Positions 2 through 64,000 of a stretch of DNA of 64,000 bases are shown here, piece after piece. Source of the stretch: a virus. The notes beneath the pieces are model-generated. The model did not search any database. It was not told where the DNA came from and saw nothing but the letters and a program-made list of their open reading frames with translations. The DNA lies in IMG/VR virus record IMGVR_UViG_3300025154_000061, positions 28,260 to 92,259 of that record; one strand, written 5' to 3'. Every line of letters starts with the position of its first letter. The stretch's first letter is position 1. Position numbers and translations under genes: made by a program.

Positions 2-1501
2 CTTGACGTTGGCGAAATGGTGGCTTACGCTACCGGCCCGACGGGGTTAGATGAAAGGGGCGGGGATGAAGCGCAAGGTGATTCAGGGGAAGTGCGTCGA
101 GTGCGGCTCGCAGATCGAGATCGTGGGATACAATCGGTGTCACCTTTACGAGACGACGGGCCGGGGGTACTGCTCGGAAGTCTGCAAAAAGACTTGGATG
201 TCCCGCCGTTGGTCAGAAACGATGGCCCGCACGAATCGAGTTTACGCGTCGGCGAGGATGCGCAAGCACAACCCGATGCACGACCCCGAAGTGCGCGAGG
301 CCGTGACTGCGAAAGCTCGGGCTCGTGGTTGGCCTGTCGGCGTGCCGCGAGGGGGGAACGGGCACGGGCCGACGAGCGCGCAATCGACGTTGGCACTCGC
401 TCTTGGCTGGGCGATCGAAGTAGCTGTGCCGACGGGCAGGGGGGCTCGCGCGAAGGGATTCCCGCCTTGCTACAAGATCGACGTAGCGAATCCGGCCGCG
501 AAGATAGCCGTCGAGATCGATGGATCGGGGCACACCTCGACGCGCGTCAAGCTAGCCGACGAGCGCAAGGCCGCGTTCTTGCGTGGGCTCGGGTGGAAAG
601 TATTACGATTCAAGAATCAGGAAGTGATATCGGATCTTCCGACGGTGATTGCCTCGATTATGTCTACAATTTAGAAGTCGAGGGCGTGCATACATATACG
701 GCGAATGGCTTTGTCGTGCATAATTGCCACCACCTCTCGGGGCAGGGCGACGCGTGGCGCGCCGCCGCGAATGCGATCGAGGCCCGGCACCGCTTCGGGC
801 TGTCGGCAACGGTCGGGCTCGACCCCGTCGGCGAGAACGATGCAACCGACGTTTGGCTTCGCGCCGTCTGCGGCCCGATCGTCTACGAGGTTGCGATCTC
901 GACCTTGATCGAGGCGGGTTACCTCGTGCGGCCGACGATCCGCTTTTTGCGCCACGGGGCGCCCGATCTGCCTTACGACCGTTGGTCGACGCGCGCCTAC
1001 GCCGACGGGATCTCGAAGTGCGAGAAGCGCAACGAGAGGATCGTCGCCGAGGCTGCGCGCTACGCGGGGCGCGGGCTGCGCGTGCTCGTCGACGTCGCCC
1101 GCGTGGGGCACGCCCGAGCCCTCGCCAACGCCTGCGCAAAGGCCCTTCCGCCCGGCCGGGTCGCCCTACTGCTCGGCACCTCGTCGGGCGACGAGCGCGC
1201 GGCCGTCGTGGCGTCGTGGCGTCGTGGCGAAGTGCTCGTCGTGGTCGGGACGATCCTCGGCGAAGGCGTCGACATTCCCGAACTCTCGGTCGTGATCAAC
1301 GCCGAGGGGGGCAAGGCGAACGTCTCGGGGCTTCAACGCCTGCGCAACCTGACGCTCTCGCCCGGTAAGACCGAGGCGATCGTCGTCGAGTTTCTCGACA
1401 CGCATCACCCGCACCTCTGCGATTGGACGGCACGCCGCCTCGCGCTCTACAGGCGTGAACGCGCCTTCAAGATCGAGGCTGAACCGAAGGGGGCAACGTG
1501 A
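2..1501 (+). CDS. Superfamily II (DExH) helicase, 5'-truncated by window edge, intein-containing
   Basis: Frame open from base 2. After the intein end (VHN) it reads CHHL (second half of DExH motif II), GLSAT (motif III), GTILGEGVDIP (motif V) and a motif VI-like QRLR. Confidence 0.85.
   Translation, partial: LDVGEMVAYATGPTGLDERGGDEAQGDSGEVRRVRLADRDRGIQSVSPLRDDGPGVLLGSLQKDLDVPPLVRNDGPHESSLRVGEDAQAQPDARPRSARGRDCESSGSWLACRRAARGERARADERAIDVGTRSWLGDRSSCADGQGGSREGIPALLQDRRSESGREDSRRDRWIGAHLDARQASRRAQGRVLAWARVESITIQESGSDIGSSDGDCLDYVYNLEVEGVHTYTANGFVVHNCHHLSGQGDAWRAAANAIEARHRFGLSATVGLDPVGENDATDVWLRAVCGPIVYEVAISTLIEAGYLVRPTIRFLRHGAPDLPYDRWSTRAYADGISKCEKRNERIVAEAARYAGRGLRVLVDVARVGHARALANACAKALPPGRVALLLGTSSGDERAAVVASWRRGEVLVVVGTILGEGVDIPELSVVINAEGGKANVSGLQRLRNLTLSPGKTEAIVVEFLDTHHPHLCDWTARRLALYRRERAFKIEAEPKGAT
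3..31 (+). promoter_or_regulatory. Sigma70-like promoter for the nested endonuclease
   Basis: TTGACG-17bp-TACGCT, same hexamers and spacing as the promoter at 57836-57864. Confidence 0.6.
51..674 (+). CDS. DUF559/Vsr-like (PD-(D/E)xK) endonuclease with N-terminal Zn-binding segment, nested in +1 frame inside intein
   Basis: CVECG...YCSEVC, then YKIDVANPAAKIAVEIDGSGH...DERKAAFLRGLGWKVLRFKNQEV. ATG66 follows AAAGGGGCGGGG and may be the true start. Confidence 0.85.
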   Translation: MKGAGMKRKVIQGKCVECGSQIEIVGYNRCHLYETTGRGYCSEVCKKTWMSRRWSETMARTNRVYASARMRKHNPMHDPEVREAVTAKARARGWPVGVPRGGNGHGPTSAQSTLALALGWAIEVAVPTGRGARAKGFPPCYKIDVANPAAKIAVEIDGSGHTSTRVKLADERKAAFLRGLGWKVLRFKNQEVISDLPTVIASIMSTI

Positions 1502-1757: not shown

Positions 1758-2513
1758 ATGCCGACGCGGGAAGAGATCGTCGCGGGTATCGATCAAGCTC
1801 GGGGCCTTACGCCGCCCCTCGAAGTGCTGCGCGCGTGCCGCCGACTGACGCTGTCGGGGGTGTCGAGCGTTCCGGCGCTCGTTGACGGGCGTTGGTTCGC
1901 GGTCGTGTCGACGGCGACCTCGACGTTTGCAATGCCGATCGCCGGGTCGACCTCGCGCGTCGGCCGCCTCTACGACCGGATCTTCCCGGTCGGGACGCGC
2001 TCGGTGCTCTTCGGGGTTCACCATTGGGCGTTGCACCCCGTGCTCGTCGCGCTGGCGTGGCGCAAGCTCTACGGGGCATGGCCGACGCCTCGCGAGGCCG
2101 CCTGTATCTTCGTTCACGATCTCGGCTACCTCGGGAAGCGCACGATCGACGGCGCCGACGGCAAGCGTCACCCGGTCGCCGGGGCGACGATCGCCGAGCG
2201 CCTCTTCGGCGCCGAGTGGGGGGCGCTCGTGCTCTTCCATTCGGGCGACTTCGCGAAGGCGAAGGGCGGCGCGATCTCGAAGCTCTACGCCCCCGACAAG
2301 CTCTCGTTCTCGCTCTACCCGCGCGCCCTCTATCTCGCCCTCGCCCGGTTGACGGGCGAGCTTCACGAGTATCGGGCGACGGCCGCGATCGCGGGGGTCG
2401 TCGACGAGCACCTTCCCGACGTCGTTTGGTTCGACGTGATCTCTGCGCGCATGGCGGCGAAGGCTTCAAGATCGGCCGCTGCGTTCAGGGCGGCAGGGGG
2501 CGACAGGGGTTGA
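1758..2513 (+). CDS. HD-like domain phage protein
   Basis: GVHHWALHP...FVHDLGY...HP...FHS...PDK; GGGGG RBS before ATG1758. Confidence 0.55.
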   Translation: MPTREEIVAGIDQARGLTPPLEVLRACRRLTLSGVSSVPALVDGRWFAVVSTATSTFAMPIAGSTSRVGRLYDRIFPVGTRSVLFGVHHWALHPVLVALAWRKLYGAWPTPREAACIFVHDLGYLGKRTIDGADGKRHPVAGATIAERLFGAEWGALVLFHSGDFAKAKGGAISKLYAPDKLSFSLYPRALYLALARLTGELHEYRATAAIAGVVDEHLPDVVWFDVISARMAAKASRSAAAFRAAGGDRG

Positions 2514-2673
2514 CGATGCGCGTCGATCGCTGCTACCTTCGAGCCCGCCTTCCGTTTCCTTCCCATTCGCTCGGGGTCGGCCGGGAGATCGCGCGGGCTG
2601 CCTCTCGCGTGATCGCCCACGGGGGCCGACCCTCGCCACGATTCGGCCGCACAACGTTACCGCAGGGCGCCGC

Positions 2674-3588
2674 ATGAAGCGCCCCGCCTTCTGCCCGCTC
2701 GACGCGCTGCGCGCCTACCTTGGCGCGATTGCGAGCGGGCTCGGGGGCGACGGGGCGATCGAGCAGATCGCGCGCGTGACGCAGTGTTCCCGGGCTGGCG
2801 TCTACCGCCTGCTCGACGATCTTCGCGGGGTGGGGCTCGTGAACGGCGATCGCCTCGTGCTCTTCGCAAAGGGGTTGACGGTTCATTCTCATGCGCCGGG
2901 CGAAGAGTGCGCGGGCGAGATCGTGCTGACGCTCGCCGAGTCGGCCGATATGCTCGCCTGCGCTGCCGCCGGGCCGCTGCCGTGCGCCAACCTTCCGCTT
3001 GCGCTGTTGCCCGAAGAGCGCGCCAAGCTCGCCGCCGAGCTTCGACAAGGGGCGGCCGAGATCTGCGTCGTGCGCGAGAGGCGCCGCGAGAAGATCACGC
3101 CCGACGACGAATACCTCTTTCGGCTCTACTCGGCCCGTCGCGTGCGGATCGACGTGGCGTGGTCGGGCGGTCGCTGCCCGAAGAAGATCGCCGACGCCCG
3201 GCGCCTGCTCGTGCGACACCACGTCGAGAAGCCGCAGTTCGCCGCCTATCTCGATTGGCTTTTCGAGAACTTCCCGAAGTGGTCGAAAGAGAAATTGCAC
3301 TACCCGCCGATCGGGATCGTGGCGTCGCAGTCGGTGATCGACTCGTTTGTCGCGACGCTCGGGGAACGCCCGTTGAACTGGCGACGCGCCGTCGAGATTC
3401 TCGCCGAGGGGGGCTTCGCCGACGTCAACGTCTTCGTCGCCCTCGACGTCGCCAAGATCGCTCGCGCCAAGAACCGCGACCCGCGCACGCTGCGCGGGCT
3501 CGACGGGCGCTACCCCGACGCGGTCGCCTACCTGCTCGAACGCTACGCCGAGATCGGGATCCTACCCACCGAAGAGGCCGCCCTATGA
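2674..3588 (+). CDS. HTH-containing protein, possible replication initiator or helicase loader
   Basis: IEQIARVTQCSRAGVYRLLDDLRGVGLV is wHTH-like; ATGA-coupled to the helicase gene. Confidence 0.5.
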   Translation: MKRPAFCPLDALRAYLGAIASGLGGDGAIEQIARVTQCSRAGVYRLLDDLRGVGLVNGDRLVLFAKGLTVHSHAPGEECAGEIVLTLAESADMLACAAAGPLPCANLPLALLPEERAKLAAELRQGAAEICVVRERRREKITPDDEYLFRLYSARRVRIDVAWSGGRCPKKIADARRLLVRHHVEKPQFAAYLDWLFENFPKWSKEKLHYPPIGIVASQSVIDSFVATLGERPLNWRRAVEILAEGGFADVNVFVALDVAKIARAKNRDPRTLRGLDGRYPDAVAYLLERYAEIGILPTEEAAL

Positions 3589-4910
3589 CCACGACGATCG
3601 ACGTAGAGTTCGAGCGAGACGTTGTCGCCTCGTGCCTGCGCGACGAAGACTTCGTGCGCGCTGCGCTGCCTACGCTCTCGCGGCACAATTTCTCGTCGAA
3701 GCCCCTCGCGTTCCTGTGGGATGCGATCTCGACGAACTTCGTCGGCTCGCGCGAGCTTGTGACGCCGCGCCTGCTCTTCGCCAGGATCGATCGCGACTTC
3801 GCCCGCGAGGAAGAGCGCGACTTCATGCTCGACGTCGTGCGCGGGCTCTACGCCCGCAAGCCTGCCGCGCCGCGATCGTCGCTCGACCAGATCCGCGAGT
3901 TCGTGCGCCTGACCTCGGCCCGCGACACCGTCGGCGAGATCCTCGAAGGGCTTGACTCGGGGGATCTCGCGCGGGCCGAGGCCGCCATGATTGCCGGGAT
4001 CGAGCGCGCGAGGAAGGTCGTCGACGACGACGAGCCCGTCGAGTGGGCGACGTCGGCCTCGGCCCGCCTCGATCGCTACCGCCGCGAGAAGTCGATCGCC
4101 TCGATCAAGACGCCGCTCGAATCGCTGAACCGCTTCCTCGGGGGCGGGATGCGCCCCGGGCACCTTGGCTTGATCGTGGCGACGACGAACGTCGGCAAGT
4201 CGTCGCTCGCGACTGACTTCGGCTACTGCGCCGCCTTCCATTCCGACGCCGCCGTGATTCACCTCACGACCGAAGAGCCCGAATTCGAGCAGTCGGCCCG
4301 CTACGACAGCCGCTTCACGGGGATCGAGCGTTCGAAGTTCTTGCGGGGGGATCTGAGCGAGGCCGAAGAGATCTTCTACCTCGACCGCTTCAAGAGGCGC
4401 GAGGCCGAGATCAACCGGATCGCCGTGAAGGAAATCGGGACCGGGGGAAGCGCCGTTGTCGTGCGCCTGCTCGCCGAGTGGGCGAGAAGGAAGCACCCGA
4501 CGCGGCCCCTGCTCGTGATCGTCGACACGCCCGATCAATTGAAGATGCCGGGCAAGAGCGAGTCGAAGCGCCTCGACGCGACCGACGTCTATCTCGGGCT
4601 GCGTGGCATGGCGTTAGACAAGTCTTTAGCCCCGATCGCGGTGTGGGCAGTCACCCACGCCCCGGCCGCGTTCGAGGGGAAGAGCTTGACCCCGAAGGCC
4701 GTCAGCGAGTCTTACGACAAGGCGCGCTGTGCCTCGGTCATGGTAGGCGCCGAGGAAAAGGGCGATCTGCCGTCGGGCAAGAAGACGATCGTCGTGCGAA
4801 TCGTGAAGAACCGTCTCGGCCCCGTGAAGCATTACCGGATTTACACCGAGGCAGACTTCGGGATCTGCAAGTTCGAAGAGGTCGCGGGATGCGAGGAAGA
4901 CGAGGAATAG
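3585..4910 (+). CDS. dnaB: DnaB-like replicative helicase
   Basis: LNRFLGGGMRPGHLGLIVATTNVGKS (Walker A), HLTTE, LVIVD, IVKNR; followed by primase. Confidence 0.8.
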   Translation: MTTTIDVEFERDVVASCLRDEDFVRAALPTLSRHNFSSKPLAFLWDAISTNFVGSRELVTPRLLFARIDRDFAREEERDFMLDVVRGLYARKPAAPRSSLDQIREFVRLTSARDTVGEILEGLDSGDLARAEAAMIAGIERARKVVDDDEPVEWATSASARLDRYRREKSIASIKTPLESLNRFLGGGMRPGHLGLIVATTNVGKSSLATDFGYCAAFHSDAAVIHLTTEEPEFEQSARYDSRFTGIERSKFLRGDLSEAEEIFYLDRFKRREAEINRIAVKEIGTGGSAVVVRLLAEWARRKHPTRPLLVIVDTPDQLKMPGKSESKRLDATDVYLGLRGMALDKSLAPIAVWAVTHAPAAFEGKSLTPKAVSESYDKARCASVMVGAEEKGDLPSGKKTIVVRIVKNRLGPVKHYRIYTEADFGICKFEEVAGCEEDEE

Positions 4911-5920
4911 CCCGCGCCTTCGACGTCGAGGGCTACGTCGATCGCGAGATCGGGGTCGTCTCTCGCTCGACCGGGAAGCACGGCGCCGAGTTGATCTGCG
5001 TCTGCCCGTTCTGCGGGCGCCCGAAGCTCTACGTCAACGTCGAGTCGGGGCTTTGGGTCTGCTACCGCTGCGCGCCGAAGGGCGGCACCGTGATCGACCT
5101 CGTCGCCAAGACGCAGGGGATCCCGCGATCGCAGGCTCGCGAGATCGTCGCCGACCCGAAGAGCGCCCCGGGCGAGTCGCTCGAACGGATCGCCGAGCGG
5201 GCCGCCGCCTCGCTCGACGAAGAGGCCCGGCACGAGCGGCGGATCGACGCCCCGCGCGTCTCGCTCGACGTGGGGCTGCCCGACGAGTTCGTGCCGATCT
5301 TCGACGCCGCCTCGGGGACGTGGCGGATCCCCGACTACTGCCGCGAGAGGGGCATTCGCGGCCGCACCGCCCGCGCCTACGGCCTCGGCTATTGCACGGG
5401 CGGCCGCTACGGCGGGCGGTTGATCTTCCCGGCGCACGTCTTCGGCGAGACGGTCACGTTCCAAGGGCGGATCATGCGCCCGCTGGCAGACGACGAGCAC
5501 GTTCCGAAGTATCTCGGCCCGTCGGTCGAGAAGAGCGTCGCCGTCTACGGGCTCGACGAGGCGATCGGGGTGCGCCGCGTGGCGCTCGTCGAGGGGCCGA
5601 TTGACGTCGTGAAGCTCTATCAATTCGGCGTGCCTGCGGTCGCCCTTATGGGCAAGTCGGCGAGCATGGGGCAGGCGACCACGCTTTCGCGAGCGGGGTT
5701 CAGGTCGATCGACCTACTGCTTGACGCCGACGATCCGGGGATAGAAGCTCGCGCCGACGCCGTCGCGGTCTTGGGTCTGACCTTCGACGTTAGACTTGCC
5801 TTTCTACCCTACGGGGTCGATCCGGGGTCTGCGACCCGCGACCAAGTCGAAGACGCTCTCGCCCTCGCCCGTGCCCCGAAACTTAGCGAAACGATTGGCC
5901 GATCTAGAAAAGCGACGTGA
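4889..5920 (+). CDS. dnaG: DNA primase (Zn finger + Toprim)
   Basis: CPFC...CYRC, GRLIFP, PKYL, LVEGPID, LLLDAD; start uncertain. Confidence 0.85.
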   Translation: MRGRRGIARAFDVEGYVDREIGVVSRSTGKHGAELICVCPFCGRPKLYVNVESGLWVCYRCAPKGGTVIDLVAKTQGIPRSQAREIVADPKSAPGESLERIAERAAASLDEEARHERRIDAPRVSLDVGLPDEFVPIFDAASGTWRIPDYCRERGIRGRTARAYGLGYCTGGRYGGRLIFPAHVFGETVTFQGRIMRPLADDEHVPKYLGPSVEKSVAVYGLDEAIGVRRVALVEGPIDVVKLYQFGVPAVALMGKSASMGQATTLSRAGFRSIDLLLDADDPGIEARADAVAVLGLTFDVRLAFLPYGVDPGSATRDQVEDALALARAPKLSETIGRSRKAT

Positions 5921-23459: not shown

Positions 23460-26356
23460 AGATCGAACGCGTGCGCCTCGACGGGATCACCCGCTACCGC
23501 AGGCCGATCGAACTCGCGCTTCCCGAGGGGGTCGTCGCGATCGTCGGGCCGAACGGGTGCCTACAGGGCGACGTAGAGATTTACGATCCAACGGACGGAT
23601 CGTCCGTCGCCGTTCGCGATCGTTACAATCGGGGCGTGCCGTTTCACGTATGGGCGTTAGGGCCGCATGGGGTCGTAACGACGGCCGCAATGCCCCCTTG
23701 CAAGTATCCGCCCGCTCAAATGCTGCGATTGCGGTTCGCGGACGGGAAGTCGATTACGGTGACTCCGGCGCACAAGTTTTGGAGCGGCGCCGAGTGGTTG
23801 ACAGCTTCCGCCATTTTTCAAGCCCTGCGAGAGAACGGGCGCGTCCGGCTGCCGTCCAGTTCGGCCGCTTACCTGTCAACTCATGCCGAAGATGATCTGC
23901 GTTGGTGCGAAATAATTCCAGATTCTCCGGGCGGTTGTCGGCGTGTTCCCCGTTGCGATGATGCACGACTTCTTCCGGCAGAAGTCGGCGCCCGAGAATC
24001 CGTTCCATTACGAGGCGATGCTCCCGAACTAGCCCTTTGCGATCTGCGTCGGGGTGATACGGAAGCCGTAGAAGAATGTAGCCGTCGGCGTCAATCACCC
24101 GACCGCCGCGCCACGACCCATTGCGAGCGCCCGGCGCTCCCCGGTCACGAATCGCTCCTCCGACGTTGCGGATTGCCTTCGCGATCCGGCTTTGATTCGA
24201 GTGCATTGACCGGGCGATCTCCGCGAGACTCGCCCCGCTCTCGTAGCGTGCAAGAGCTTCGCGCCTCCGCTCATCCGTCCAATTCTGACGCATCGACGCC
24301 CCCCGGGGTTATGGTTCCTTTCGAAACATACCCCGCGATTGACCCGTCGACAATCGAAATTGTCGCGGTTGGCGAGCTACCGTGCGAGCCTTACTACGAC
24401 TTCCACGTCCCGGTTCACCTAAACTATTGGGCCGCCGGGGTCTGGAATCACAACTCCGGCAAGACGACGCTTCTCGAATGCCTCGGCCCGGCCGTCTTCT
24501 TCCGCGAGTTGCCGACCCGCGAGCCCTCGGGAATCCAGAATTGGATCGGGCCGAAGGGCGGCCGGATCGAACTCGACTTCGTGCGGGGCTCGCGCCGCTA
24601 CGAAGCGATCGTCGAGATCGACGGGTCGGGCAGGCAAGCCGCGTTCCTGACGTGCGACGGGGTCAAGCTCGCGTCGGGCAAGGTGCGCGACTACGACGTC
24701 GAGATCGCGAAGGTGGTCGGCAACCGCGACGCCTTCTACGCCTCGGTCTTCGGGATGCAGGGCGGGGGCGGGCGCTTCGAGTCGCTCGAAGTCACCGACC
24801 GCAAGGCGATCTTTCGCTACTACCTCGGGCTCGACCGGGTCGACAAGGCGCACCGCGCCGCCCGCGCCCGCCTCGAAGCGCTCGACGTCTCGAAGATCGC
24901 CACGCTGCGCGCCGATCTCGAAGCCTGCGAGACGGCGATCGCCGAGGCCGAGGCCGACGTCAAGGCTGCGGTCTTCGCGGCCGACGCCGAGCGCGAGGTA
25001 AGTCGCAAGGCGCGCGCCAAGCTCGACGACCTGCTCGCGCTCTCGTCGACGGCCGAACTCGTCGACGCCTACGACACCGCTCTCGACGCGGCGGGCGAGG
25101 CGCAAGACGCGCTCACCGCCCTACCTGCCCGCCCGGCCGCCGCGCCTGCGCCGACGGGCGACAAGGGCGCCGCTACGATCGCCTTAGAGGCCGCGAGGAA
25201 GAAGAACGAGGGCTACCTCGTCAAGAGCGCCGAGATCGCCCGCGTCGGCTCTTCGCTGGCGACGGCGAACGCCGACCTCGTGCGGGCGAACAAGGCGACC
25301 GAGCGTCTCGCGCGCGTGCCGTGCAAGGGCGAGGGCGCCTTCGCCGGGTGCGAGTTGCTGCGCGACGCGATCGCCGCGCGCGAATCGATCGCTGCGCTGC
25401 GCGACGTGTGCGCCAAGGCCGAGCAGGCGCACGAGACGTTGAAGGTCGAGGTCGCCGCGCTCGTCGTGCCCCGCGAGAAGCTCGACGCACTGCGCGCCAA
25501 GGTCGCCGAGGCCGAGCGGGAACTTGAAGCGCACCGCCTCGGGGCCGAGCGCTGCCGCGCCTACGACGAGAAGCGCGATCGACTGAACCGTGCGCTCGCT
25601 GACGCGAAGAGGCAGGCCGCCGCGCTGCGTGCCCGGCTGCCGAAGGTGATCGACGACGTGCCGTCGCTGGCGCAGATCGACGCCGCTCGCGAGGCGAGCG
25701 CCGCCGCGAGTGCCGCCTACGAGAAGGCGATCCGCGAGCACGAGGCGGGCGTCGCTGCGTTCGGCGGCGCCCTCGATCGCAAGGCCGGGATCGAGAAGGC
25801 CCTCGCCGCCGAGGAAGCTCGCGCCGCCGACGCGCCCGCGCTCGAACTGCTCGCCCGCGCTCTCGGGGCGAACGGGATCCAAGCCTACGAGATCGACGCC
25901 GCAGGCCCCCGCGTCTCGGCCCTCGCGAACTCGCTCTTGCATGCCTGCTACGGGCCGCGCTTCGACGTCGAGGTGCGCACGACGAAGGCGTTGAAGAGTG
26001 GCAAGGGCGAGAAGGAAGACTTCGACGTCGTCGTCTACGACAACGACAGCGGGATCGAGAACACGATCGCCGGGCTGTCGGGGGGCGAGAAGGTGATCGT
26101 CGACGAGGCGCTTCGGCTGTCGCTCGTGATCTTCGCCGACGAGCGCCTCTCGGTTCCGTTCCGGGTGCTCTACCGCGACGAGACGATCGGCGGGCTCACC
26201 CGGGACAACCGCGCCGCCTATGCGCGAATGCTTCACCGCGCCCGCGATCTCGGCGACTTCGGGCAGATCTTCCAAGTGACCCACGACGAAGAGTCGAGCG
26301 AGAGCGCCGATGTCGTGATCGCGATCGACGAGTCGGGCAATGTCTCGGTCGCATGA
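23456..26356 (+). CDS. sbcC: SbcC/Rad50-like SMC ATPase, intein-containing
   Basis: GPNG/[intein]/SGKTT Walker A, Q-loop MQG, coiled coil, LSGGE, DE, QVTH. Confidence 0.92.
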   Translation: MKIERVRLDGITRYRRPIELALPEGVVAIVGPNGCLQGDVEIYDPTDGSSVAVRDRYNRGVPFHVWALGPHGVVTTAAMPPCKYPPAQMLRLRFADGKSITVTPAHKFWSGAEWLTASAIFQALRENGRVRLPSSSAAYLSTHAEDDLRWCEIIPDSPGGCRRVPRCDDARLLPAEVGARESVPLRGDAPELALCDLRRGDTEAVEECSRRRQSPDRRATTHCERPALPGHESLLRRCGLPSRSGFDSSALTGRSPRDSPRSRSVQELRASAHPSNSDASTPPGVMVPFETYPAIDPSTIEIVAVGELPCEPYYDFHVPVHLNYWAAGVWNHNSGKTTLLECLGPAVFFRELPTREPSGIQNWIGPKGGRIELDFVRGSRRYEAIVEIDGSGRQAAFLTCDGVKLASGKVRDYDVEIAKVVGNRDAFYASVFGMQGGGGRFESLEVTDRKAIFRYYLGLDRVDKAHRAARARLEALDVSKIATLRADLEACETAIAEAEADVKAAVFAADAEREVSRKARAKLDDLLALSSTAELVDAYDTALDAAGEAQDALTALPARPAAAPAPTGDKGAATIALEAARKKNEGYLVKSAEIARVGSSLATANADLVRANKATERLARVPCKGEGAFAGCELLRDAIAARESIAALRDVCAKAEQAHETLKVEVAALVVPREKLDALRAKVAEAERELEAHRLGAERCRAYDEKRDRLNRALADAKRQAAALRARLPKVIDDVPSLAQIDAAREASAAASAAYEKAIREHEAGVAAFGGALDRKAGIEKALAAEEARAADAPALELLARALGANGIQAYEIDAAGPRVSALANSLLHACYGPRFDVEVRTTKALKSGKGEKEDFDVVVYDNDSGIENTIAGLSGGEKVIVDEALRLSLVIFADERLSVPFRVLYRDETIGGLTRDNRAAYARMLHRARDLGDFGQIFQVTHDEESSESADVVIAIDESGNVSVA
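23754..24293 (-). CDS. HNH homing endonuclease with N-terminal HTH, antisense inside the SbcC intein
   Basis: WRGGRVIDADGYILLRLPYHP...VREHRLVMERILGRRLLPEEVVHHRNGEHADNRPENLELF; G-run RBS upstream of ATG. Confidence 0.88.
   Translation of the reverse strand: MRQNWTDERRREALARYESGASLAEIARSMHSNQSRIAKAIRNVGGAIRDRGAPGARNGSWRGGRVIDADGYILLRLPYHPDADRKGLVREHRLVMERILGRRLLPEEVVHHRNGEHADNRPENLELFRTNADHLRHELTGKRPNWTAAGRARSLAGLEKWRKLSTTRRRSKTCAPESP
24325..24353 (-). promoter_or_regulatory. Sigma70-like promoter for the antisense HNH gene
   Basis: Minus strand TTGTCG-17-TATGTT, about 30 nt upstream of ATG24293. Confidence 0.55.
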
Positions 26357-27899: not shown

Positions 27900-28445
27900 G
27901 TGGGCGAAGAGCAGAGGGCAACGCAGGCGGCGGGGCGCAAGCTCGTGATCGCGGATCTCGGGCTCGTGAACCGGGCGATCTCGGCCGCCTTCAAGGCGGG
28001 CAGCGACTACAAGCTGCTCGAAGTGGGCGCGCGCTTGCAGGAAGACAAGCGGCTTCCGCCGAAAGACGTGCTCTTGCAGCGCGCCATGAACCAAGCGGGG
28101 ATCCCGAACGGGCTGCCCGTCTTCGACGTGGCGTCGGGGGCCGACCCCGCGACGGTGGCGCTGCGCGTCAAGCACGAGGTCGCCGAGGGCGAGGGGCGCC
28201 CGACGCCCACGATCGGCGACTACCTGCGCCGGGCTCGCGCCGGGCGGCCGCAGGGCGAGATCGCCAAGGCGGCCGGGATCTCGGTCGAGACGCTCGCGCG
28301 CTACGAGAGCGACGGCGTCGCGCAGAAGGGCGAGATCCTGGCCAAGATCGGCGACGCCCTCGGGGTGCCGAAGGCGCACGCCGCCCTTTGGATCAAGCTC
28401 GCCGACGCGACCAAGGGCGCCAAGACCCCCGCTGCCGCCGCCTGA
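27900..28445 (+). CDS. XRE-family HTH protein
   Basis: IGDYLRRARAGRPQGEIAKAAGISVETLARYES...LAKIGDALGV. Confidence 0.75.
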   Translation: MGEEQRATQAAGRKLVIADLGLVNRAISAAFKAGSDYKLLEVGARLQEDKRLPPKDVLLQRAMNQAGIPNGLPVFDVASGADPATVALRVKHEVAEGEGRPTPTIGDYLRRARAGRPQGEIAKAAGISVETLARYESDGVAQKGEILAKIGDALGVPKAHAALWIKLADATKGAKTPAAAA

Positions 28446-57543: not shown

Positions 57544-57888
57544 ATGGCGCGACGCAGGAAGAGCGAGGATCGGCTTCGTAGCGTGAACGTCGACGGCGTC
57601 GGCGCGAACGCGGTCGTGATCCTGCGAGTTCTGCTTGCCCGTGGTCACGAGAAGCGCACGGCCTCGCAGGTCGCCGCCGAAACGGGGATCGTGGTCTTCC
57701 GGGTGCGCGAGAGCTTCAAGGCGCTTGCCTCTCGGGGCGTGGTCGACCTCGATGAGCAGGGGCGCGCGTCGGCTGGCGCTGTCGCCGCGTTCGCGCTGCG
57801 CGAGATCGAGCACTCGTCGCCCGCCGTCGCGAAACTTGACGGCGTATCCCGCCCGGCTTACGCTGGCAACCGAACGAACCGCCCTTGA
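57544..57888 (+). CDS. Winged-HTH protein
   Basis: TASQVAAETGIVVFRVRESFKALASRGVV. Confidence 0.65.
   Translation: MARRRKSEDRLRSVNVDGVGANAVVILRVLLARGHEKRTASQVAAETGIVVFRVRESFKALASRGVVDLDEQGRASAGAVAAFALREIEHSSPAVAKLDGVSRPAYAGNRTNRP
57836..57864 (+). promoter_or_regulatory. Sigma70-like promoter
   Basis: TTGACG-17-TACGCT. Confidence 0.6.
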
Positions 57889-63419: not shown

Positions 63420-63951
63420 CGGCGACGATCTCGTCGTGAAGCTCGAACGCGACGAGACGATCCTCGCGCTGACGCTCTCGCCGCTCTACCCCGACGACTT
63501 CGCCGCGTTCGACGACGCCGCCGCGCAAGACGTCGCGACGCGCTCGCCCGAGGCCGCCCCCGGCAGGCAGACCGTCGCGAGCGCCGCCGCCATGCGCGAC
63601 GAGCCCACGCCCCCGGCCGCCGCCTCGCACCCGTTCAGCGCGATCGAGGTCGGCGTCAGGCTGCCCGACGGGACGCAGATCCCGATCGCCGCGATCGCCT
63701 ACGACGGGAAGACCTGCGACGCCGCCGTTGCCTACGGCTTCGACTTCGCCGCCGCCCGCGTGGTTGGGTGGGTGCAATGCGTCGCGCAGGGGTCGGCGAC
63801 CGTGCCCGAATTGCTCGAACGGATCGCCGAGCAGGGGGCGCAGGCCGCCGAGACGTTCAGCGCGCCCGCGAAGCTCTCGGCCCCGACGGCGCGCGCCGCC
63901 GCGATCGATCGCCTCGTCGCCTCTCTCGTCGCCGCGAAGCTCCCGGCTTGA
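63400..63951 (+). CDS. Hypothetical protein in head module
   Basis: Codon usage and position. Confidence 0.55.
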   Translation: MLSVEPDGDDLVVKLERDETILALTLSPLYPDDFAAFDDAAAQDVATRSPEAAPGRQTVASAAAMRDEPTPPAAASHPFSAIEVGVRLPDGTQIPIAAIAYDGKTCDAAVAYGFDFAAARVVGWVQCVAQGSATVPELLERIAEQGAQAAETFSAPAKLSAPTARAAAIDRLVASLVAAKLPA

Positions 63952-63958
63952 CCCCTCG

Positions 63959-63987
63959 TTGACGCTTTTCGTGCTCTAGGCTAGTCT
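63959..63987 (+). promoter_or_regulatory. Sigma70-like promoter
   Basis: TTGACG-17-TAGTCT. Confidence 0.55.
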
Positions 63988-64000
63988 TTCCCCCGAAGAC

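Follow-up and report, generated by a model that had tools for sequence, protein, structure and literature searches.

Can one run of phage DNA be read, on a single strand and in two registers, both as a protein-splicing element and as a nuclease that could spread it? The question is raised by a helicase gene at the beginning of the DNA analysed here, a stretch of 64,000 nucleotides (the 'window') that corresponds to bases 28260–92259 of the 92,259-nt viral record IMGVR_UViG_3300025154_000061 (68% GC). The gene encodes a superfamily 2 (SF2) helicase of the ResIII/DExH kind; an intein interrupts its motif II, and within the intein, one base out of step, lies a gene for a nuclease of the Vsr/DUF559 type. 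We consider it very likely that the locus is a mobile intein and homing-endonuclease module, inserted in an SF2 helicase gene of a groundwater phage, with its two proteins encoded on the same strand in frames that overlap. Splicing, the activity and target of the nuclease, and the route by which it is expressed, we infer from the features described below. The window begins inside the helicase gene; the DNA upstream was fetched as L001, in which position 1501 is position 1 of the window, and positions in the full record are prefixed G000. Coordinates without a prefix are those of the window.

The helicase is encoded by one open frame of 798 codons (L001 605–3001), which divides into an N-extein of 221 aa, an intein of 319 aa and a C-extein of 258 aa. 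The N-extein matches ResIII in Pfam (E=1.6e-13), and motif II of the DExH helicase is split as FIDE/CFPAGTLV...TPNH...GFVVHN/CHH, where the slashes mark the splice junctions. The parts of the gene lie as follows:

L001 1268–1270 (G000 28027–28029), + strand: intein Cys1, upstream of the window
2–724, + strand, frame 2: the intein, residues 79–319 of 319 being inside the window
50–571, + strand: linker of the intein frame, residues ~95–268, which is the nuclease gene read out of frame (AlphaFold confidence, pLDDT, 44–53; no secondary structure)
719–724, + strand: terminal HN of the intein, the last Asn (N319) being 722–724
725–1501, + strand: C-extein, with the +1 Cys at 725–727, CHH at 725–733, motif III (SAT), Pfam Helicase_C and the stop at 1499–1501
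Reconstructed intein-less allele, N-extein end joined to C-extein start: ...GACGAA/TGCCACCAC...

As in other class 1 inteins, the first-residue nucleophile, Cys1, directly follows the N-extein (FIDE/C); the TxxH of block B is present as TPNH, of which T62 is shared by at least 90% of 61 related inteins and H65 is invariant among them; the C-terminal HN is followed by the +1 Cys (VVHN/CHH, 713–733), N319 being invariant in the same 61; and the frame continues through both exteins, 798 codons without a stop. The Pfam Intein_splicing score is 38.7 bits against a cut-off of 35.8. In an AlphaFold model built from the 61-intein alignment, residues 1–92 and ~270–319 form the HINT fold, with pLDDT mostly >90, and the model without its linker superimposes on the NpuDnaB intein (4o1r) with Z 19.7 and a root mean square deviation of 1.5 Å over 130 residues. 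Between the two HINT parts, ~175 residues are predicted to be disordered, and this disorder starts where the nuclease open reading frame (ORF) starts (50–571 for the linker, 51–674 for the ORF). Some 69% of the linker residues are disorder-promoting, which is only a slight excess over synonymous shuffles, and hydrophobic content does not differ from theirs (0.242 versus 0.241). The initial annotation, made from the window alone, had placed the intein before the CH of DExH motif II, and the DE/CHH junction bears this out. It had also anticipated that DE and a block A Cys would be found upstream; FIDE/CFPAGTLV is there, together with the TPNH of block B. A stop upstream in the intein frame, which it named as the mark of a true split intein, does not occur in L001, and because the frame is uninterrupted there a true split intein is ruled out.

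The second reading of the same DNA, in frame 3, yields a protein with recognizable parts of its own:

51–674, + strand, frame 3 (+1 relative to the intein): candidate homing-endonuclease gene, a free-standing ORF
93–185, + strand: 4-Cys zinc ribbon (C15, 93–95; C18, 102–104; C41, 171–173; C45, 183–185)
513–569, + strand: catalytic motif of the Vsr/EDxHD type (E155, 513–515; D157, 519–521; H161, 531–533; D170, 558–560; K173, 567–569)

The ORF comprises 207 codons from ATG51 or 202 from ATG66, and is flanked by TAG triplets at 48–50 and 672–674. ATG66 is the more likely start; it sits 9 codons ahead of the first zinc-ribbon Cys, as it does in homologues. The product matches Pfam DUF559 (PF04480; E=4.3e-12, 46.3 bits versus a cut-off of 20.6). 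A word-indexed database returned 29 homologues of 39–50% identity. With an exhaustive profile search the number rises to 894 clusters (E<=1e-30), almost every one of which is 190–270 aa long. In an alignment of 23 homologues (A1), the four Cys residues are invariant or at least 90% conserved, as is D157 (at least 90%), and E155, H161, D170 and K173 are invariant. In the confident AlphaFold model (pLDDT 88.9) the protein has, besides the zinc ribbon, long helices and a nuclease domain of alpha/beta type; the ribbon itself, two strands and a helix, reaches pLDDT 96–98. The top Foldseek rows for this model are I-Bth0305I (3r3p), a DUF559 protein (3hrl) and Vsr (1vsr, 1cw0), with probabilities of 0.91–1.00 and E-values of only 6e-3 to 5e-2. 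A profile search of the PDB with the catalytic region ranks 3hrl (E=2.7e-9) ahead of 3r3p (E=0.0074). Pfam finds no NUMOD or helix-turn-helix (HTH) region at the N-terminus, which is occupied by the zinc ribbon and long helices instead; for this reason we regard the nuclease as a distinct branch, nearer to DUF559 than to I-Bth0305I. ORF, DUF559 profile and fold matches thus agree with the prediction, already part of the initial annotation, of a +1-frame DUF559/Vsr-like endonuclease, and its stop does fall in block F as had been noticed: TAG 672–674 spans the Leu and Glu codons of DYVYNLEVEG.

Are both frames maintained, or does one merely happen to be open? GC content at third codon positions (GC3) over 51–674 is 0.74 in frame 3 and 0.53 in the intein frame, which marks frame 3 as selected; the GC3 of host genes is 0.86. 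The intein frame, for its part, contains no stop across the nuclease gene, where a mean of 5.1 is expected. When the nuclease ORF is shuffled among synonymous codons, the intein frame stays open in just ~0.1% of trials, a fraction that rises to 4% when the shuffles use the phage's own codon usage. In nine related loci, some of them with only 29–35% GC, the same test gives no intein-frame stop in any, against 9–19 expected. Over all ten loci tested the expectation for the intein frame ranges from 5.1 to 18.8 stops, and the third frame carries 7–34, as expected. Since stops are absent both here and in the nine relatives, read-through of the intein is kept by selection, which implies a single helicase precursor instead of a split intein. 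The initial claim that the same bases carry both intein and nuclease therefore holds, as two frames with selection for the open one.

Over most of its length the overlap pairs a structured nuclease with a predicted disordered linker. At its 3' end this changes:

575–674, + strand: deep dual-coding zone, where the C-terminus of the nuclease (GWKVLRFKN...IMSTI and the stop) and the C-lobe of the intein (RVESITIQ...DYVYNL) share their bases

Here both frames encode structured, conserved protein. GWKVLRFKN of the nuclease is RVESITIQ in the intein frame, the first strand of the C-lobe, and the IMSTI with which the nuclease ends is DYVYNL of block F. In one 30-nt block of this zone, 16 of the 30 DNA columns show conservation of at least 90% among 65 loci that range from 30 to 68% GC, and in all 65, which are non-identical, the nuclease stop lies 8–65 nt ahead of the end of the intein. 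In this phage the zone forms an island of low GC (0.43–0.50 at 570–720) in a 68% GC genome. Such an arrangement might be a genetic interlock rather than a mere accident of insertion, a suggestion that we make tentatively and think rather less probable than its opposite. Because GWKVLRFKN, the best conserved C-terminal motif of the nuclease, and the nuclease stop share bases with the first strand of the C-lobe and block F, deletion of the nuclease gene would also abolish splicing, and with it an essential helicase. If true, the interlock would slow the usual decay of homing endonucleases that leads to mini-inteins, and would explain why the nested form dominates over free-standing or in-frame forms among ~900 sequence clusters.

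The layout is widespread. We surveyed two sets of loci with a gene of this nuclease family, the best 80 from viruses and 69 cellular ones from bacterial and archaeal genomes or metagenome-assembled genomes of many phyla. In 77 of the 80 viral loci the nuclease is nested in the same relative frame within an open intein frame, almost always at the DE/CHH site of DExH helicases, and in some cases in SNF2-type ATPases or a terminase. The same strict test is passed by 56 of the 69 cellular loci, and six more have an open frame; the identical frame offset occurs in more than 130 loci. One is from an isolate, Ktedonobacter racemifer DSM 44963 (L116 2244–4556, NZ_ADVG01000004.1), which carries the same helicase intein with its overprinted nuclease intact; its helicase apparently has a second intein further downstream (EGYD/CLDRETEIL...). 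To treat the layout as peculiar to this locus would be an overstatement; for a large family it is the normal arrangement.

Other arrangements of the same nuclease are instructive. In L058 the family member is free-standing. In L059 (2995–5266) a free-standing nuclease lies directly upstream of, and slightly overlaps, an intein-less DExH helicase (LIIDEAHRA), possibly representing the state before intein invasion, or else intronless homing. In L065 (2338–4601) N-extein and the intein's N-terminal part (IntN) are in the nuclease frame and the C-part is in the -1 frame, an intein that is effectively broken or en route to a split one. Finally, in L012/L013 (2828–5317) a nuclease domain without the zinc ribbon sits in-frame in an intein at DE/CQD of a UvrD-like protein. 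Longer homologues, with the nuclease fused in-frame, were sought and none was found, which is weak evidence given that the in-frame forms of L012/L013 exist.

How might such a module work and spread? We envisage that the helicase frame would be translated straight through, with N-extein, intein and C-extein in one precursor, and that the linker, specified by a nuclease gene one base out of step, would form a disordered loop, tolerated because selection has purged every stop from the intein frame. Class 1 cis-splicing (Cys1, TPNH, HN and the +1 Cys) would then restore DE-CHH and release a helicase of 479 aa. Ribosomes would separately initiate at ATG66, aided by the Shine–Dalgarno (SD)-like AAAGGGG and possibly on a transcript from an internal promoter, to make an enzyme of ~202 aa in which a helical linker lies between the 4-Cys zinc ribbon at the N-terminus and a Vsr/DUF559 nuclease of the 'EDxHD' type at the C-terminus. 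In a mixed infection the targets of this nuclease would be helicase alleles without the intein, cut in or close to the coding DNA of motif II, and recombinational repair would copy intein and nuclease into the cut allele. Cleavage near motif II, which the initial annotation had proposed, is an inference from the family. The extein flanks are conserved only as GAYGAR/TGYCAYCAY, as DE/CHH predicts. Between loci the nucleases share ~50% identity and the N-lobes of the inteins ~45%, against 21–35% for the host helicases, and because nuclease and intein are far more alike than the helicases, the comparison fits movement of the module between divergent hosts.

Several observations count against a working, mobile module. 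The distance matrices of nuclease and intein are only weakly correlated (Mantel test, r=0.18, too low to be informative). When viral contigs were searched with the C-extein, neither close relatives of this helicase nor an intein-less sister allele came to light, and joints that skip the intein were absent from the contigs of four runs, although contigs drop rare variants. No RNA run is among those listed as containing the sequence. Two relatives, moreover, have nucleases that look from their sequences to be decaying or inactivated: L007 (3851–4591) has a TGA at a zinc-ribbon Cys codon, and L005 (3953–4519) lacks the first CxxC and an early ATG. The intein frame is open in both, so an open intein frame can outlast a working nuclease. 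(The jumbo-phage helicase of L005 also carries a mini-intein in its Walker A region.)

These points lend most to the view that the element is a relic, a mini-intein with a long, tolerated loop, whose nuclease ORF is intact by descent and no longer expressed or active, as at a late stage of the homing cycle. No intein-less allele has been seen, the nucleases of some relatives do decay while their intein frames stay open, and the GC3 of the nuclease (0.74) is below that of host genes (0.86). Yet all the invariant zinc and catalytic residues are intact, together with start codon and SD-like sequence, and frame 3 has remained free of stops for 207 codons that the helicase does not need; we judge a relic to be unlikely. 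A different view is that the locus is a fractured gene of the kind described by Dassa et al. (2009), with two polypeptides, N-extein–IntN and IntC–C-extein (IntC being the C-terminal intein part), that trans-splice, and a Vsr-like gene between them. The nuclease family and its 3' overlap with the C-part of the intein resemble those of fractured genes, and L065, with N-extein and IntN in the nuclease frame, is effectively broken. The intein frame here has zero stops, however, as have those of 77 of the 80 viral loci; its openness is statistically selected both here and in nine relatives; and no non-coding spacer precedes the nuclease gene. We consider a split intein very improbable.

It might also be argued that the two frames are an artefact, or a degenerate canonical intein, in which an in-frame Vsr-type domain has been displaced by two compensating frameshifts (errors or recent mutations) and no nuclease is made. 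In-frame versions of the nuclease domain do exist in other inteins (L012/L013), but they are missing the N-terminal zinc ribbon, which is complete here, and the ORF has its own SD-preceded start and flanking stops (TAG 48–50 and TAG 672–674). The frame offset, furthermore, is common to more than 130 loci, and independent runs give identical DNA. The sequence is present in contigs of groundwater and soil metagenome runs; a 41-kb contig of the probable source run spans the stretch with 0 differences, and low-depth contigs of three further groundwater/soil runs, from other samples, show zero differences at either extein/intein junction or at the start and end of the nuclease ORF. The identical contigs cover (in L001 numbering):

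532–1620: N-extein/intein junction and nuclease start
1900–2394 and 2020–2281: nuclease end and intein/C-extein junction

Since independent runs match without a difference, the locus is not an assembly artefact, and displacement by frameshifts seems to us scarcely credible. We therefore retain the mobile intein with its own overprinted endonuclease as the best account of this DNA.

For the expression of such an endonuclease, two candidate signals lie near its start:

3–31, + strand: promoter-like TTGACG-17-TACGCT (TTGACG 3–8, TACGCT 26–31), on intein codons LDVGEMVAYA of frame 2
54–60, + strand: SD-like AAAGGGG, 5 nt ahead of ATG66 (duplex with the anti-SD, -7.0 kcal/mol)

The ribosome-binding site that had been recognized ahead of ATG66 is supported by the -7.0 kcal/mol duplex here and by a signal across the family, in which the mean SD duplex before the nuclease start is -5.5 kcal/mol versus -3.9 in matched control start triplets (p=7e-5). 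The promoter is another matter. Its hexamers, the 17-nt spacer and the overlap with LDVGEMVAYA are as first reported, but the site scores 8/12 matches, under the threshold of the scan tool, and a standard promoter and terminator scan of 4.5 kb around the gene found nothing. The pattern TTGAC[GA]-N16-18-TAnnnT occurs six times (five of them unique) on the coding strand and not at all on the other, although bare TTGACG is no commoner on one strand than on the other. The four other unique sites, each within ~150 nt upstream of an ORF start, are these:

2510–2540, coding strand: TTGACG-N17/18-TAnnnT
57836–57864, coding strand: the same, with a hexamer pair identical to that of the intein-embedded site
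G000 95, coding strand: TTGACG-N17/18-TAnnnT
G000 1636, coding strand: TTGACG-N17/18-TAnnnT

TTGACG-N17/18-TAnnnT may thus be a promoter type of this phage. Of 70 relatives, 15 have a comparable site in the 200 nt upstream of the nuclease start, whereas control windows have one in 4.7% of cases; the loci are not independent, and in relatives the -35 hexamer frequently falls on the codons of a conserved Leu-Thr/Asp of the intein. From these sequences an internal promoter at 3–31 is plausible. A programmed frameshift that would fuse intein and nuclease was also considered and rejected: a TAG directly precedes ATG51, and the relatives have SD-preceded starts of their own.

The helicase gene adjoins a replication module (1758–5917), with these members:

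1758–2510: ORF with HD-like sequence and no Pfam match
2674–3585: HTH protein
3585–4907: DnaB-like helicase
4952–5917: DnaG-type primase

The last 126 nt of the record (63875–64000) are repeated exactly near its start (G000 11–136); though classed as 'linear', the record probably represents an entire genome, either terminally repeated or assembled from a circle. The same phage contains a second non-canonical intein, of 299 aa (23558–24454, + strand; GPNG/CLQGD...VWNHN/SGKT), which interrupts the Walker A motif of an SMC/Rad50-like ATPase. Inside it, an antisense ORF (23754–24293, - strand) encodes an HNH_3 endonuclease of 179 aa (E=4.2e-8, above the cut-off), and the intein frame has 0 stops where 3.3 are expected (p=0.007). 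An antisense HNH gene within an intein was not found in the literature that we compared, which has antisense LAGLIDADG and VSR-like genes.

What do these observations add? Out-of-frame intein endonucleases are more than an occasional oddity of actinobacteriophages; the nested layout is the norm for one Vsr/DUF559 lineage, in phages and prophages, across many bacterial phyla and from 30 to 68% GC. They furnish a natural, replicated case of same-strand dual coding over ~0.6 kb, in which one frame need only stay open and ~100 nt are doubly structured. Annotation is likely to mistake inteins of this kind for mini-inteins or for inteins in decay. The family of nucleases, in turn, may be a pool of candidate site-specific enzymes aimed at the coding sequence of helicase motif II.

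Inteins with an out-of-frame endonuclease are already known as a kind, first described in preprints of 2025–2026. The same-strand +1 Vsr/DUF559 form in helicase motif II, its family size and its overlap with the splicing blocks were not found in the literature searched, and a full-text search for papers that join 'intein' with DUF559 gave only an unrelated genome paper. Closest, along with the fractured genes treated below, are the contiguous inteins of actinobacteriophages described by Gosselin, Arsenault and Gogarten (bioRxiv 10.1101/2025.01.02.630785), which contain antisense LAGLIDADG, antisense VSR-like or frame-3 endonuclease VII-like genes. These authors propose that a free-standing endonuclease gene invaded the intein, and speculate that indels could bring same-strand ORFs into frame. 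Here, as there, the intein is contiguous, a separate endonuclease ORF lies over the linker between the splicing blocks, and the in-frame linker is predicted to be unstructured; open frame, other-frame nuclease and unstructured linker place the present element among non-canonical contiguous inteins with an overlapping endonuclease ORF. It differs in that their VSR-like genes are antisense, and their only same-strand out-of-frame type is endonuclease VII-like, whereas here a Vsr/DUF559 gene is on the same strand at +1. Their hosts are DNA polymerase, minor capsid, terminase and thymidylate synthase genes rather than a DExH helicase; and their second ORFs are typically outside the splicing domain, whereas the last ~100 nt of this one are co-read with the C-lobe and block F.

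The cyanobacterial dnaX intein of Phillips et al. (2026), with its out-of-frame endonuclease, is comparable in being widely distributed, in having a conserved, overlapping-frame endonuclease under purifying selection and in its proposed origin, secondary invasion of a mini-intein. Its host gene is a different one and cellular, not phage, and the term Vsr does not occur in the paper's text. ShiLan, an out-of-frame HNH insertion in phage DNA methylases (Arsenault et al. 2025; PMC11855218), likewise hides an endonuclease ORF of another frame in an insertion without host-frame stops. It has no detectable splicing domain, and the insertion would stay in the host protein, whereas here a complete HINT domain surrounds the ORF. 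Among nucleases the comparison is with I-Bth0305I, the prototype of EDxHD homing endonucleases, whose cut lies next to the site where it is inserted (Taylor et al. 2011; PMC3239194; PDB 3r3p). Its Vsr-like catalytic domain has the same conserved E/D/H/D residues, and it is the best structural match of our model, but it is encoded in a recA group I intron and has an N-terminal NUMOD/HTH where the present enzyme has a zinc ribbon and helical linker, and is closer to DUF559 (3hrl).

The fractured genes of Dassa et al. (2009; PMC2677866), finally, are split inteins that flank a free-standing Vsr-like or GIY-YIG endonuclease gene. They share with this locus a same-strand Vsr-related gene between the N and C parts of an intein, a setting in phage genes for DNA metabolism, and an endonuclease 3' end that overlaps the downstream intein part, in their case by 6–69 bp. 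In fractured genes a stop follows IntN, and a spacer of 27–51 nt and a new start for IntC come after; here the intein is not broken into two ORFs, the frame is uninterrupted and selected, and splicing would be in cis. The present findings connect fractured-gene split inteins, in-frame Vsr-type inteins and free-standing endonucleases as members of one series that differ by small indels, a series that bears on how inteins acquire endonucleases and on how split inteins originate.

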